Source: a virus
UHGV virus genome: UHGV-0099692
Length of the DNA: 24,703 nucleotides
Direction: 5' to 3' (one strand)
Below, one piece after another: positions 1,073-12,201 of the stretch; position 1 is the stretch's first letter, and every line of letters begins with the position of its first letter. A program made the position numbers and the translations under genes. The notes under the pieces were generated by a model. It was not told the origin of the DNA. It did no database searches and saw only the letters and a program-made list of their open reading frames with translations.

Positions 1073-1209
1073 TGTTTGAGTTTTATATGGCAGAACGTCT
1101 TCGCCACCGCTGGGGGCGTCTGCGCTTATATCGTTTCCCCGGTTCTGTTTTGACCGATTACCGAATACTGAAGAATTACGCCAAAACCCTGACAGGAGCA
1201 GGAGTATGA
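1069..1209 (+). CDS. ylcG: YlcG-like small protein (46 aa)
   Basis: Manual translation [46 protein letters not shown]; start overlaps the rusA stop; position between rusA and Q as in DLP12. Too short for the ORF track. Confidence 0.6.
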
Positions 1210-1294
1210 AGTCAGAGATAACAATCAACTAATACTGTTTCGTTGATTTTTGCTTGTAATTGGCGTTCTGGTCTGATTTTTGTGGAGTAAGTTG

Positions 1295-1678
1295 ATGCGT
1301 GATATTCAGATGGTTCTTGAGCGTTGGGGAGCGTGGGCGGCTAATAATCATGAAGATGTGACCTGGTCGTCCATTGCCGCCGGTTTTAAGGGATTAATTA
1401 CTTCAAAAGTAAAATCTCGCCCGCAATGTTGTGACGATGACGCGATGATTATTTGCGGGTGCATGGCCCGTCTGAAAAAGAACAACAGCGATTTGCACGA
1501 TTTATTAGTAGATTATTATGTAGTCGGTATGACATTCATGTCACTGGCAGGTAAGCATTGCTGCTCTGATGGTTATATCGGGAAAAGGTTACAGAAGGCT
1601 GAGGGCATAATTGAAGGGATGTTAATGGCATTAGATATCCGGTTAGAGATGGATATCGTTGTTAATAACTCTAATTAA
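1295..1678 (+). CDS. quuD: Late-gene antiterminator Q (QuuD-like, 127 aa)
   Basis: [26 protein letters not shown]... with Cys-rich motifs ([15 protein letters not shown]); matches remembered DLP12 QuuD. ATG at 1295 preferred over the TTG at 1280 of the ORF track. Confidence 0.88.
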
Positions 1679-4931: not shown

Positions 4932-5219
4932 ATGGATGAAGAATATCGTAAAGACCTGCAATTGTGGTTTGGCCTGACGCATGCGTCGTTCTGCGTGATG
5001 CCGAGAGTATTCATGGAGGCTATGCCGCAAGAATGGCAAGAGAAGATGGCGCAGTTGCTTTTTGAGTATGGCGACACGATCAAAACGGATGTCTGCGGAG
5101 TTCACTGCTGTTTCGTTACTGCCAAAGACGGCAACAACCGCTTTATGAGGATGCCAGAAGATATTCTGAACTATCGTCATCCCCGGCGTGAGTTCATCGA
5201 ATCATTTCTGAAGAAGTAG
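4932..5219 (+). CDS. Hypothetical protein (95 aa), function unknown
   Basis: Only substantial + strand ORF in this interval, co-directional with the late operon; four Cys (C21, C55, C59, C60). No family recognised from memory. Confidence 0.5.
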   Translation: MDEEYRKDLQLWFGLTHASFCVMPRVFMEAMPQEWQEKMAQLLFEYGDTIKTDVCGVHCCFVTAKDGNNRFMRMPEDILNYRHPRREFIESFLKK

Positions 5220-5312
5220 CCATTACAAAGTCTATCTGCGGGGGGCTTGATAAAGGTGCTTTCACCTCGCTTAGCATGGTATGTTCTGACTACCAACTTT
5301 TTGGGAGGACAC

Positions 5313-5537
5313 ATGGAACTGATAAATGGACGGCCAGGCAGAGATTTTATAGTGGGAACATATACCTACTCAGAAATTAAAGATCTTAACTTCATGGCTA
5401 AGGAAGAGAAAAGAGCTCGTGAAGAGCTAAAGCATCGGGGTTACGAATTGGCGTATATCAAGGCGGACTCTGAATGTAACGGGATGTTTGTCAGGGCGTA
5501 CCGGGTCTATACTGACAAAGCGCCATCTAATGTCTAA
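5313..5537 (+). CDS. Hypothetical small protein (74 aa), function unknown
   Basis: ATG at 5313 preceded by GGGAGGA (5303-5309); MELINGRPGRDFIVGTYTYSEIKDLNFMAKEEKRAREELKHRGYELAYIK...; the ORF-track start at 5247 lacks an RBS. Confidence 0.5.
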   Translation: MELINGRPGRDFIVGTYTYSEIKDLNFMAKEEKRAREELKHRGYELAYIKADSECNGMFVRAYRVYTDKAPSNV

Positions 5538-5672
5538 ATATACCTCGGGCGGTTTTTTACGTTCATTACCGTACGCAATTACAGCAGGCATTCATTGAGT
5601 GCCTGTGATAATGATTTATCAACGTGCTTGCAAACGGTATTCTAGACCTCCAATTATCCTAAGGAGGTTTTT

Positions 5673-9117: not shown

Positions 9118-10706
9118 AACGAACGCCTGTCCTGATTGATGTGAACGGCGTTCCGCTTCGTGAGAGTCTCAGCTACAACGGGGGCGGTGCAGGATTTGGC
9201 GGGCAAATGGCTGAGTGGTTGCCACCGGCGCAGAGTGCCGATGCGGCCCTGCTGCCCGCGTTGCGTCTGGGGAATGCCCGTGCAGATGATCTGGTGCGCA
9301 ATAACGGAATAGCGGCCAATGCGGTGGCCCTGCATAAGGATCACATTGTCGGGCATATGTTTCTGATCAGCTACCGTCCGAACTGGCGCTGGCTGGGGAT
9401 GCGGGAGACCGCAGCAAAAAGCTTTGTCGATGAGGTGGAGGCGGCCTGGTCGGAATACGCCGAAGGGATGTTTGGCGAGATCGACGTGGAAGGAAAACGC
9501 ACGTTCACGGAATTTATCCGTGAAGGTGTGGGCGTTCATGCGTTTAACGGCGAAATCTTTGTGCAGCCGGTCTGGGATACGGAAACCACGCAGTTATTCC
9601 GTACGCGTTTTAAAGCCGTGAGTCCGAAACGGGTGGACACGCCTGGACACGGTATGGGGAACCGTTTTCTGCGGGCCGGTGTGGAGGTCGATCGATATGG
9701 CCGTGCCGTCGCGTACCATATTTGTGAGGATGATTTTCCGTTCTCTGGTAGTGGACGATGGGAACGGATCCCGCGTGAACTTCCCACCGGACGTCCGGCC
9801 ATGCTGCATATTTTCGAGCCGGTGGAGGACGGGCAGACCCGTGGGGCTAATCAGTTTTACAGCGTCATGGAACGGCTGAAGATGCTCGATTCCCTGCAGG
9901 CAACACAGCTTCAGTCGGCCATAGTGAAGGCGATGTATGCAGCGACGATTGAAAGTGAACTTGATACCGAAAAGGCCTTTGAATATATCGCCGGCGCGCC
10001 ACAGGAGCAGAAGGATAATCCGCTTATTAATATTCTGGATAAGTTCTCCACCTGGTATGACACGAATAGCGTGACGCTGGGCGGTGTCAAAATTCCGCAC
10101 CTTTTCCCCGGTGATGATCTGAAACTTCAGACCGCGCAGGATTCAGACAATGGATTTTCGGCGCTTGAACAGGCGCTGCTGCGGTATATCGCCGCCGGTC
10201 TTGGCGTTTCCTACGAACAGTTGTCCCGTGATTACTCGAAGGTCAGTTACTCAAGTGCCCGCGCCTCCGCCAATGAGTCGTGGCGCTATTTTATGGGGCG
10301 ACGAAAATTTATTGCGGCCCGGCTGGCCACGCAGATGTTTTCCTGCTGGCTGGAAGAGGCACTTCTTCGGGGGATTATTCGTCCGCCACGGGCACGTTTT
10401 GATTTTTATCAGGCGCGATCAGCCTGGTCACGGGCAGAGTGGATTGGTGCCGGAAGAATGGCCATTGACGGGCTCAAGGAAGTCCAGGAATCAGTGATGC
10501 GCATTGAGGCCGGACTGAGCACGTATGAGAAAGAGCTGGCGCTGATGGGCGAGGATTATCAGGACATTTTCCGCCAGCAGGTCAGGGAATCTGCTGAGCG
10601 GCAAAAAGCCGGACTCTCACGTCCGGTGTGGATAGCGCAGGCGTATCAGCAGCAGATAGCGGAGAGTCGCAGGCCGGAAGAGGAGACAACACCACGTGAG
10701 ACGTAA
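9114..10706 (+). CDS. B: Portal protein (lambda gpB homologue), 530 aa
   Basis: ATGA overlap with the W stop; size and position as lambda B; colinear similarity from memory. Confidence 0.92.
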   Translation: MKRTPVLIDVNGVPLRESLSYNGGGAGFGGQMAEWLPPAQSADAALLPALRLGNARADDLVRNNGIAANAVALHKDHIVGHMFLISYRPNWRWLGMRETAAKSFVDEVEAAWSEYAEGMFGEIDVEGKRTFTEFIREGVGVHAFNGEIFVQPVWDTETTQLFRTRFKAVSPKRVDTPGHGMGNRFLRAGVEVDRYGRAVAYHICEDDFPFSGSGRWERIPRELPTGRPAMLHIFEPVEDGQTRGANQFYSVMERLKMLDSLQATQLQSAIVKAMYAATIESELDTEKAFEYIAGAPQEQKDNPLINILDKFSTWYDTNSVTLGGVKIPHLFPGDDLKLQTAQDSDNGFSALEQALLRYIAAGLGVSYEQLSRDYSKVSYSSARASANESWRYFMGRRKFIAARLATQMFSCWLEEALLRGIIRPPRARFDFYQARSAWSRAEWIGAGRMAIDGLKEVQESVMRIEAGLSTYEKELALMGEDYQDIFRQQVRESAERQKAGLSRPVWIAQAYQQQIAESRRPEEETTPRET

Positions 10707-12201
10707 TCTTTCACACATTATTGCCGCAGCATTCAATGAACCGCTGCTTCTGGAGCCCGCCTATGCGCGGGTTTTCTTTTGCGCGCTCGGGCGCGAGATG
10801 GGAGCAGCAAGTCTTTCGGTACCACAACAGCAGGTACAGTTTGATGCTCCCGGAATGCTGGCTGAAACGGATGAGTACATGGCCGGAGGTAAACGACCGG
10901 CCCGTGTTTACCGGGTGGTGAACGGTATTGCTGTACTGCCGGTGACCGGCACGCTGGTGCACCGGCTGGGTGGTATGCGGCCATTTTCCGGAATGACAGG
11001 CTATGACGGTATTGTCGCCTGTCTTCAGCAGGCAATGGCGGATAGCCAGGTGCGGGGCGTACTGCTGGACATTGACAGTCCGGGCGGGCAGGCCGCCGGC
11101 GCGTTTGACTGCGCTGACATGATTTACCGCCTCCGTCAGCAGAAGCCGGTCTGGGCACTGTGCAATGACACTGCCTGTTCTGCAGCCATGCTGCTGGCGT
11201 CGGCCTGCTCCCGACGGCTGGTTACCCAGACATCCCGTATCGGCTCCATTGGCGTGATGATGAGCCATGTCAGCTATGCCGGTCATCTGGCGCAGGCCGG
11301 GGTGGATATCACGCTGATTTATGCCGGGGCGCACAAGGTGGATGGCAATCAGTTTGAAGCGTTGCCGGCAGAGGTTCGCCAGGATATGCAGCAGCGGATT
11401 GATGCGGCGCACCGGATGTTTGCCGAAAAAGTGGCGATGTATACCGGGTTGTCTGTGGATGCGGTCACGGGAACAGAGGCCGCCGTTTTTGAAGGTCAGT
11501 CCGGCATTGAGGCCGGGCTGGCGGATGAATTAATCAATGCGTCGGATGCCATCAGTGTGATGGCCACGGCGCTGAACAGTAATGTCAGAGGAGGCACTAT
11601 GCCGCAATTAACTGCAACGGAAGCCGCCGTGCAGGAGAACCAGCGAGTGATGGGGATCCTGACATGCCAGGAAGCGAAAGGACGTGAACAGCTTGCCACG
11701 ATGCTGGCAGGGCAACAGGGCATGAGCGTTGAACAGGCCCGGGCGATTCTGGCCGCGGCGGCACCGCAGCAGCCGGTGGCATCCGCGCAGAGTGAAGCCG
11801 ATCGCATTATGGCGTGTGAAGAAGCGAACGGTCGTGAACAACTGGCGGCAACGCTGGCGGCGATGCCGGAGATGACGGTGGAAAAAGCCCGCCCGATCCT
11901 GGCGGCTGCACCACTGGCGGATGCCGGGCCCTCACTTCGTGATCAGATCATGGCCCTGGATGAGGCAAAAGGGGCAGAAGCGCAGGCTGAAAAACTGGCG
12001 GCCTGCCCGGGAATGACCGTGGAGAACGCCCGGGCTGTGCTGGCTGCGGGATCAGGTAAGGCCGAACCGGTCTCTGCATCCACAACCGCCCTGTTTGAAC
12101 ATTTCATGGCGAATCATTCACCGGCAGCGGTGCGGGGTGGCGTGTCACAGACGTCAGCAGACGGTGATGCGGACGTGAAAATGCTCATGGCCATGCCATG
12201 A
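10696..12201 (+). CDS. C: Head maturation protease / scaffold (lambda gpC homologue, S49/ClpP-like), 501 aa
   Basis: GTG start overlapping the B stop; N-terminus AAFNEPLLLEPAYARVFFCAL and protease core (GIAVLPVTGTLV, DSPGG, RIGSIGVMMSH, ITLIYAGAHKVDGN) match remembered lambda C; C-terminal third carries three tandem repeat units. Confidence 0.9.
   Translation: MRRNLSHIIAAAFNEPLLLEPAYARVFFCALGREMGAASLSVPQQQVQFDAPGMLAETDEYMAGGKRPARVYRVVNGIAVLPVTGTLVHRLGGMRPFSGMTGYDGIVACLQQAMADSQVRGVLLDIDSPGGQAAGAFDCADMIYRLRQQKPVWALCNDTACSAAMLLASACSRRLVTQTSRIGSIGVMMSHVSYAGHLAQAGVDITLIYAGAHKVDGNQFEALPAEVRQDMQQRIDAAHRMFAEKVAMYTGLSVDAVTGTEAAVFEGQSGIEAGLADELINASDAISVMATALNSNVRGGTMPQLTATEAAVQENQRVMGILTCQEAKGREQLATMLAGQQGMSVEQARAILAAAAPQQPVASAQSEADRIMACEEANGREQLAATLAAMPEMTVEKARPILAAAPLADAGPSLRDQIMALDEAKGAEAQAEKLAACPGMTVENARAVLAAGSGKAEPVSASTTALFEHFMANHSPAAVRGGVSQTSADGDADVKMLMAMP
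11599..12201 (+). CDS. nu3: Candidate nested in-frame scaffold protein (Nu3-like), 200 aa
   Basis: Internal ATG at 11599 in the C frame, preceded by GAGGAGG (11588-11594); lambda encodes Nu3 the same way inside C. Spacer to the ATG is short (4 nt). Confidence 0.45.
   Translation: MPQLTATEAAVQENQRVMGILTCQEAKGREQLATMLAGQQGMSVEQARAILAAAAPQQPVASAQSEADRIMACEEANGREQLAATLAAMPEMTVEKARPILAAAPLADAGPSLRDQIMALDEAKGAEAQAEKLAACPGMTVENARAVLAAGSGKAEPVSASTTALFEHFMANHSPAAVRGGVSQTSADGDADVKMLMAMP

Follow-up and report, generated by a model that had tools for sequence, protein, structure and literature searches.

A conserved module, predicted to form three helices, is triplicated in the protease/scaffold gene of phage 21-type Escherichia coli prophages

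In the window, by which we mean the whole 24,703-nt stretch of DNA analyzed here (UHGV virus genome UHGV-0099692), the prohead protease/scaffold gene of a lambdoid prophage carries three tandem, diverged copies of a unit of ∼42 aa. This triplication has already been described: it is an annotated feature of phage 21 that is carried by a very common E. coli prophage. Taken together, our data are best explained by a phage 21-type C/Nu3 nested gene pair in which an old, selected triplication would have produced a trivalent procapsid-targeting module, and we consider this joint reading quite probable.

The Window Encodes a Phage 21-Type Protease/Scaffold Gene

The window covers the late region of a prophage of the lambdoid type that lies in an E. 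coli chromosome. Here, the genes for the Q antiterminator, lysis, terminase, head–tail joining protein, portal, and S49 peptidase are followed by those for a decoration protein, a lambda-E-type capsid protein of 342 aa, FI/FII, and the tail proteins to J. The product of the S49 peptidase ORF (Table 1), which RefSeq labels S49 family peptidase, matched the head maturation protease family phrog_53 (E = 1.5e-228). Its peptidase domain makes up the N-terminal part of the 501-aa protein, as expected for a lambda C/Nu3-type pair, and the protease residues Ser162 and Lys150 are invariant in an alignment of eight proteins. ORFs found on the minus strand or in other frames over the repeat region were judged to arise incidentally from GC-rich coding sequence.

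The gene is 97.3% identical at the DNA level to gene 5 of bacteriophage 21, with which it is collinear over 1506 nt with zero gaps. The two proteins are equal in length (501 aa) and differ at 12 of 501 residues, five of which lie inside the repeat units. The start and ribosome binding site (RBS) of nested gene 6 are the same in phage 21, as is the neighborhood (terminase, gene 3, portal, 5/6, shp, and capsid protein); the window gene, which sits in an E. coli chromosomal prophage, thus shows only allelic differences from its phage 21 counterpart. The GenBank record of the "Bacteriophage 21 head gene operon" (M81255) contains three repeat_region features in nested gene 6, named "Tri1 box," "Tri box," and "Tri3 box" and carrying the note "function unknown; putative," and each of them falls inside one of the three units of the window gene. 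The triplication noticed in the original prediction is therefore not new, as these same three boxes were annotated in M81255. A full-text literature search found no paper discussing the Tri boxes, the source of which is reportedly Smith & Feiss 1993 (Gene 126:1-7).

Table 1. Features of the protease/scaffold gene in window coordinates (M81255 positions were converted with an offset of 7695)
Feature	Position	Strand	Basis
S49 prohead protease/scaffold fusion, 501 aa (lambda C/phage 21 gene 5 homologue)	10696-12201	+	ORF
Peptidase_S49 domain, aa 146-293	11131-11574	+	Pfam PF01343, E = 1.3e-35
Shine-Dalgarno (SD) sequence AGGAGG, 4 nt before ATG (11599)	11589-11594	+	Sequence; equivalent of M81255 putative RBS = 11588-11592
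Nested in-frame scaffold gene, 200 aa (phage 21 gene 6, Nu3 analogue)	11599-12201	+	M81255 gene 6 CDS; "scaffolding protein" at the same window positions in OL657228, the complete phage 21 genome of 2022
Unit R1, MGILTCQEAKGREQLATMLAGQQGMSVEQARAILAAAAPQ (aa 319-358)	11650-11769	+	Local alignment; contains M81255 Tri1 box
Tri1 box (M81255 3971-4074)	11666-11769	+	M81255; inside R1
Linker 1, QPVASAQS	11770-11793	+	AlphaFold2 (AF2) pLDDT <50 at gp6 residues 57-63
Unit R2, EADRIMACEEANGREQLAATLAAMPEMTVEKARPILAAAPLA (aa 367-408)	11794-11919	+	Local alignment; contains M81255 Tri box
Tri box (M81255 4111-4221)	11806-11916	+	M81255; inside R2
Linker 2, DAGPS	11920-11934	+	pLDDT dips between units
Unit R3, LRDQIMALDEAKGAEAQAEKLAACPGMTVENARAVLAAGSGK (aa 414-455)	11935-12060	+	Local alignment; contains M81255 Tri3 box
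Tri3 box (M81255 4252-4365)	11947-12060	+	M81255; inside R3
C-terminal tail, aa 456-501 (46 aa)	12061-12198	+	Resemblance to lambda tail by eye

All three units fall within the predicted product of the nested scaffold gene. An internal start at 11599 had been part of the original prediction, and it is supported by the sequence signals at this site, AGGAGG followed by a 4-nt spacer, and by their conservation in homologues. Specifically, the gpC homologues surveyed show 30 distinct start patterns, and 28 of these have an SD sequence and an in-frame ATG at the homologous site; AGGAGG plus ATG directly after the protease domain is kept in Escherichia homologues and in those as far afield as Vibrio and Pseudomonas. 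Lambda gpC, too, has an in-frame internal SD sequence and ATG just after its protease domain. Gene callers independently begin proteins at the Met encoded at 11599 (P0001, P0003, P0037, and others). This conservation among homologues speaks for 11599 being a genuine start.

Three Diverged Copies of One Unit Follow the Protease Domain

The units lie in tandem and in frame after the protease domain and are joined by linkers of 8 and 5 residues. Local BLOSUM62 alignments of the three unit pairs gave 22/35, 19/36, and 22/36 identities (53 to 63%), with scores of 82 to 103. By comparison, 2000 composition-preserving shuffles gave a mean score of ∼25 (SD ∼5) and a maximum of 54, so that the observed scores stand at z = 12 to 17 above the shuffles. 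The central claim of the original prediction, three diverged tandem copies in the Nu3-like C-terminal part of a gpC homologue, is thus upheld, and its coordinates for the region (11650 to 12060) and residue ranges for the units were accurate. An alignment of 19 units from the window and its relatives has the pattern I(M/L)xxxEAxGRExLAxxLAxxPGMTxxxAxxxLAAAP, the conserved columns of which include E, G, R, E, L, P, G, M, and T.

These data bear directly on the alternative that the apparent repeats are mere Ala-rich low complexity, which had been named as one of the findings that would undo the claim. The region is indeed rich in Ala, Gln, and Glu, and Tandem Repeats Finder detected no repeat with the unit period, only an 18-nt GC-rich repeat at 11756 to 11790. 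However, shuffled sequences of the same composition did not approach the observed scores, the conserved columns are specific, and when 1.84 billion representative proteins were searched with a unit profile of 42 positions, 1169 clusters matched at E ≤ 0.001, most of them at an equivalent site close to the C terminus of S49 proteases. We therefore give the low-complexity explanation practically no chance. A direct-repeat search of the DNA over the units returned 15-nt seeds only; the units are nearly invisible to DNA repeat finders because they are too diverged in DNA.

In R3 of the phage 21 lineage, the GRE motif reads GAE, and a near-invariant Arg is gone, which could mean that the role of this unit is diverging. 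The GAE in R3 was counted against the best explanation of the locus. The tail that follows R3 opens with FEHFMA, which is similar to the start of a unit, and a direct-repeat family, D2, has members at 11799, 11940, and 12096.

Lambda C/Nu3 and the window protein share the S49 domain, the placement between the portal and D/E homologues, and the conserved module. Lambda gpC (NC_001416, 4418 to 5737) is 55% identical to the window protein and contains a single unit at aa ∼361 to 400 (IMGILNCEEAHGREEQARVLAETPGMTVKTARRILAAAP); pairwise alignment thus confirmed that lambda has one copy and 439 aa versus 501 aa here, as the original prediction had stated. The C/Nu3-type module, (I)(M/L)xxxEAxGRExxAxxLAxxPGMTxxxAxxxLAAAP, which is typical of such proteins at ∼40 to 90 aa from the C terminus, is present in the window protein three times versus once in lambda, where the linker is ∼34 aa longer than in the phage 21 type. 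By position, R1 corresponds to the lambda unit, with 28/45 identities when flanks are included. By eye, the tail TALFEHFMANHSPAAVRGG resembles lambda TALDRLMQGAPAPLAAG, although global alignment pairs the lambda tail with R2 instead. Because R1 matches the position of the lambda unit and the tail after R3 resembles the lambda tail, R2 and R3 look like extra copies relative to lambda.

One Unit Is the Norm, and Three Units Mark an Enterobacterial Clade

Homologues were surveyed by an exhaustive profile search combined with a species-level locus scan; a word-indexed search gave mostly contig-end fragments. Among the best 150 of the 1169 clusters matched by the unit profile, 138 contained one unit, nine contained two, and three contained three, several of the two-unit matches being fragments. 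The typical site lies ∼80 aa from the C terminus of proteins of 420 to 550 aa. The species-level scan, for which one genome was taken per species, yielded 80 gpC-like loci. One unit was found in 69 of these (Enterobacterales, Vibrio, Pseudomonas, Marinobacter, and others), two units in one (Buttiauxella), three units in five (E. albertii, E. coli, Shigella, Trabulsiella, and Providencia), and no unit in the remaining five, three of which are on short contigs. One copy is the usual and apparently ancestral state in phages of the Gammaproteobacteria, and three copies are, as far as these loci indicate, the mark of an enterobacterial clade; a four-copy form also exists. The copy number survey that the original prediction had proposed as a check thus showed three units kept in close relatives and one unit elsewhere as the norm; the three unit positions are retained in relatives down to 62% protein identity.

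Of 5426 complete E. coli genomes, 1870 contain the 603-nt nested gene and with it the three-unit region. Coverage of the three-unit region reaches at least 80% in 1865 of the 1870, and nearly all places listed are 603 nt long. In IMG/VR, 454 stretches encode a relative, the best 80 of which are 97 to 100% identical and all encode 501 aa.

The four-unit allele (P0025/L166), which resides in other E. coli prophages, has the same architecture, with a decoration protein, a lambda-E-type capsid protein, and FI encoded by its neighbors, and its unit 1 is 75% identical to R1. This allele was found in 106 of the 5426 E. coli genomes and in zero records of the phage collection searched. Its units show 71 to 79% DNA identity to each other, with shared runs of up to 21 nt, and because they are more alike, the data suggest a younger expansion or gene conversion in this allele. 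Shorter forms also occur. In the genome NZ_CP145703, R2 has lost 57 nt in frame between two CTGGCGGC repeats, P0022 has an in-register R1/R2 fusion, and P0013 and P0019 are without R2. Natural variants that lack most of R2 were counted against the best explanation of the locus.

The Triplication Is Old, Selected, and a Poor Recombination Substrate

Within the window gene, unit pairs show 59 to 68% DNA identity, and their longest shared exact runs are 8 to 10 nt. Codon positions 1 and 2 are 69 to 81% identical between units and position 3 is 36 to 42% identical; the corresponding between-unit dS (Nei–Gojobori) of 1.4 to 1.8 is saturated. In relatives from Salmonella, Trabulsiella, and Providencia, the window unit that best matches unit 1, and likewise unit 2, is the one in the same position; for unit 3, this holds only in Salmonella P0028 and Trabulsiella. 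From the saturated dS and these position-by-position matches, we read the triplication as old; it probably predates the Salmonella, Trabulsiella, and Providencia lineages. Comparisons with phage 21, E. coli L086, and E. albertii L085 gave dN/dS values of 0.05 to 0.14 for the pooled unit cores, the same range as for the protease domain. Because of these low values, all three copies are, by this measure, kept by purifying selection.

RecA-dependent exchange needs roughly 25 bp of identity, and the runs shared by the units are far under this length. As the units are too diverged, with at most 8 to 10 identical bases in common, they are, judged by their DNA, a poor substrate for homologous recombination, and the observed deletions are best described as rare microhomology events. 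The suggestion in the original prediction that the repeat is a recombination substrate has accordingly weakened, given the low DNA identity, the short runs, and a length kept in essentially all 1870 genomes. Its stronger form, in which the triplication would be a recent, unstable duplication and a recombination hot spot with freely varying copy number, can point to the R1/R2 fusion, the two forms without R2, the 57-nt deletion at the CTGGCGGC repeats, and the four-unit lineage. Against these stand not only the divergence and saturated dS but also the near-uniform 603-nt length and ≥80% coverage in E. coli, the constant 501 aa of the best 80 of 454 IMG/VR loci, and the conservation of all three positions in relatives down to 62% protein identity, and we regard such a hot spot as very improbable.

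Each Unit Is Predicted to Be a Three-Helix Module

From a 19-row alignment, AF2 produced a model of the 200-aa scaffold protein that has a mean pLDDT of 66.7 and a pTM of 0.26, in which the units have values of 72 to 78 and the linkers and tail end values <60. Each unit in this model consists of a helix, a short turn, a helix, a loop, and a helix, and a further helix is predicted in the tail at scaffold-protein residues 160 to 173. A single unit modeled from the 19-unit alignment also formed three helices, with a pLDDT of 83 and a pTM of 0.58. Thus, the unit is predicted to be a small, independently folding three-helix module. The units fall in no Pfam family (DUF7178, the single hit, has E = 0.06 and is noise), and a PDB sequence search with the unit region gave as its best match the Lac repressor at E = 0.24, which is spurious. 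Foldseek searches of the PDB with the 200-aa and single-unit models returned nothing at E ≤ 0.001, the best match being a mitoribosomal protein at E = 2.1, a value that carries no meaning for a module of this small size. As Pfam, PDB sequence, and Foldseek searches gave no match, the fold assignment rests on AF2 with a 19-row alignment.

A Likely Role in Procapsid Recruitment

The module is the most conserved element in the region common to the protease and the scaffold and, because of this, is most likely a contact that recruits both proteins to the procapsid. For lambda, contacts of Nu3 as a whole with the portal B, with C, with the capsid protein E, and with Nu3 itself have been reported (PMC3224144), which argues for shared targeting of protease and scaffold. 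In lambda, both are present in procapsids and are proteolytically removed ahead of DNA packaging (PMC3224144), and in HK97/D3 the protease and scaffold both need targeting to the procapsid interior (PMC12749128).

In the mechanism that we propose, the C-terminal region would be common to the 501-aa protease and the nested 200-aa scaffold, each of which would thus bear the modules. Each unit would fold on its own, with short flexible Pro/Ala/Gln linkers joining it to the next, and would act as a protein–protein contact that brings protease and scaffold into the assembling procapsid; its partner may be the capsid protein, at its inner face, and/or the portal. The triplication would make the scaffold trivalent, like beads on a string, and could thereby provide more avidity or bridge neighboring subunits, while leaving head size as it is. 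Domain multiplication may, as the original prediction suggested, change capsid assembly interactions. A change in head size is unlikely, because the capsid protein is of the 342-aa lambda-E type and lambda/phage 21 hybrids were viable laboratory phages (PMC9119081).

Two other roles can be set against procapsid targeting. The units might be self-association modules for scaffold–scaffold and scaffold–protease contacts, three copies giving a more cross-linked scaffold core. Lambda Nu3–Nu3 and C–Nu3 interactions and Nu3 dimerization (PMC3224144) favor this role, as does the location of the module in the region that both proteins share, as co-assembly needs. The AF2 monomer, however, shows the units as separate, unpacked beads (pTM 0.26). 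In addition, P22-type scaffolds use a small C-terminal helical motif to bind coat and other parts to oligomerize, and so, by analogy only, separate the two activities. On balance, self-association appears somewhat unlikely as the function of the units. We find it distinctly more doubtful that the extra units are a spacer or ruler that replaces the long unstructured linker of the lambda type and sets scaffold length or flexibility. The spacing fits such a role: the nested start lies 17 to 18 aa before unit 1 in three-unit genes versus 34 to 66 aa in one-unit genes, and lambda carries ∼34 linker residues that have no counterpart in the phage 21 type. Yet every unit keeps I-x4-EAxG(R)E-xLA-xxLA-xxPGMT-xxxA-xxxLAA, specific residues that a spacer does not need; dN/dS is 0.05 to 0.14, and the units are predicted to be folded rather than disordered. 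It is the residue-level conservation that speaks against a passive spacer.

Under procapsid targeting, one may speculate further that module copy number, one in lambda, two in a few phages, three in the phage 21 type, and four in an E. coli lineage, is a tuned valency, although we think this unlikely. Were it so, copy number would govern the contacts that scaffold and protease make with the lambda-E-type capsid protein or portal, with assembly fidelity or chaperone dependence, for example, adapted to capsid-protein alleles, and the natural series of one to four copies would offer an experimental handle on the lambda-type scaffold–shell contact.

Relation to Other Scaffolds and Significance

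The scaffolding protein gp8 of P22 has a C-terminal helix-turn-helix coat-binding domain that is single, basic, and at the extreme C terminus. The mechanism proposed here draws on gp8 as a functional analogy: gp8 bears a small helical motif toward the C terminus of a scaffold that is cleared from the head before packaging, and the module of the window would be its counterpart. In contrast to the P22 motif, the module of the window is followed by a 46-aa tail, is present in three copies, and is shared with the protease, and neither a PDB sequence search nor Foldseek with the 200-aa and single-unit models revealed similarity to the gp8 C-terminal domain. The "delta-domain" label used in the original prediction is a misfit. 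In HK97, an N-terminal domain of the capsid protein serves as the scaffold, and the protease is of a different family from the S49 protease of the window; the window has a separate, nested scaffold of the lambda C/Nu3 type and no N-terminal capsid-protein extension.

The triplication is an ordinary, ancient, and stable feature of phage 21-type head genes. Because it is already annotated in M81255 and widespread, being present in about one-third of complete E. coli genomes, its value as a discovery is small. Its value as a lead lies in the module, which is better conserved than any other part of the scaffold half in lambda-type C/Nu3 proteins and is without a Pfam family or PDB match. The natural alleles with one, two, three, and four copies form a swappable set for mapping the recruitment of scaffold and protease into procapsids.

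The survey also bears on annotation. The "CII binding sites" that OL657228 places inside gene 6 on the minus strand were rejected because their pattern occurs no more often than expected by chance (4 times in the window versus 4.9 expected). The nested scaffold gene is absent from the RefSeq annotation in E. coli, which suggests that it is systematically left out of RefSeq prophage annotation. In lambda, the RefSeq start of nu3 is at 5132 (Met239), a position at which the aligned residue of the window protein is Ile, and this start may be worth re-examining.

Copy Number of the Repeat Unit Varies among Homologs

Our analyses revealed that the same protease/scaffold gene exists as a four-unit allele (L166 1-1043; GCA_032727965.1, contig ABNWJB010000046.1), in which units 2 to 4 are closely alike (IMALPEAKGREQLAQ...). 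This allele was present in 106 of 5,426 complete E. coli genomes. It was found in 0 of 50,697 phage records and is thus without a cultured-phage representative. Losses were also evident. Specifically, the E. coli locus L084 (NZ_CP145703.1) carries, at about position 1740, a 57-nt in-frame deletion corresponding to window positions 11841-11897, which removes the second half of R2 and is flanked by two CTGGCGGC copies, suggesting a microhomology slip between them. Among other homologous proteins, R1 and R2 are fused in register in P0022, and R2 is missing from P0013 and P0019.

The third unit of the E. coli/phage 21 lineage is distinguished by the motif GAE..AQAE, as compared to GRE..xLAx in nearly all other units of the family; unit 3 of the Salmonella, Trabulsiella, and Providencia proteins retains GRE. 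The tail beyond the last unit begins with a short helix, FEHFMA, whose sequence is similar to that at the beginning of a unit (DRIMA or DQIMA) and which lies at the spacing expected of one more unit, as given by the D2 direct-repeat family (spacings of 141 and 156 nt). Similarly, LDRLMQ follows the single unit of lambda gpC in the same arrangement. This unit-like tail opening could be the flanking repeat from which the duplication arose.

The module also occurs in two stand-alone proteins of 195 to 198 aa (P0091 and P0103), each containing two units and a different, internally repeated C-terminal motif, with W(D/E)..L.SRGM present twice. They may act as scaffold proteins in a different group of phages, employing this module with no protease attached.

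Coordinates of the sequence features described in this section
Feature	Window position	Strand	Other coordinates
R3 GAE motif	11974-11982		aa 427-429
Tail FEHFMA	12096-12110		aa 467-472
Lambda Shine-Dalgarno (SD) sequence and ATG	11589-11601 (counterpart)		L003 (lambda locus) about 1319-1339; NC_001416 nt ~5318-5338
"CII binding sites" annotated in OL657228	11604-11617, 11838-11851 (equivalents)	-	
Anti-adapter protein IraM gene	1195-1530	-	
TonB-family protein gene	5233-5559	+	

The Nested Scaffold Gene and Its Start in Lambda

The phage 21 gene 6 start has a homologous counterpart in lambda gpC, the Met307 ATG (nt 5336), which is preceded by a perfect AGGAGG with a 5-nt spacer. An SD sequence and ATG are kept at this position in 28 of 30 distinct start patterns among the homologs. 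The RefSeq start of lambda nu3 is at 5132 (Met239), where an obvious SD sequence is absent and where the window protein has an isoleucine. Lambda Nu3 is probably ∼13 kDa in size. Position 5336 may be the true or principal Nu3 start, giving a product of 133 aa.

The nested scaffold gene (window 11599-12201) is annotated in both phage 21 records. In E. coli prophages annotated by RefSeq/PGAP (L165 [NZ_CP023820] and L084), it is absent, and the 501-aa "S49 family peptidase" is the sole entry. The 2022 phage 21 genome OL657228 additionally places "CII binding sites" (TTGYN6TTGY) inside gene 6. These are probably chance matches, because the window contains 4 instances of the pattern, versus 4.9 expected by chance.

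Additional Observations

For a set of lambda-like gpC loci (L097-L105, L119, L121, L122, L131, L138, L146, L147, L149, and L151), the tblastn match was the same as that of lambda. Their contigs are short or of low coverage, several being about 48.4-48.5 kb, and the assemblies are labeled Kitasatospora, Chromatium, Shewanella, Pseudomonas, Oceanobacillus, Leeuwenhoekiella, Neobacillus, Akkermansia MAG, Enterococcus, and Paenibacillus, among others. Almost certainly, these are public assemblies contaminated by lambda control DNA.

Elsewhere in the window, the IraM and TonB-family genes are located among the prophage Q, lysis, and late genes and are probably morons (cargo genes).
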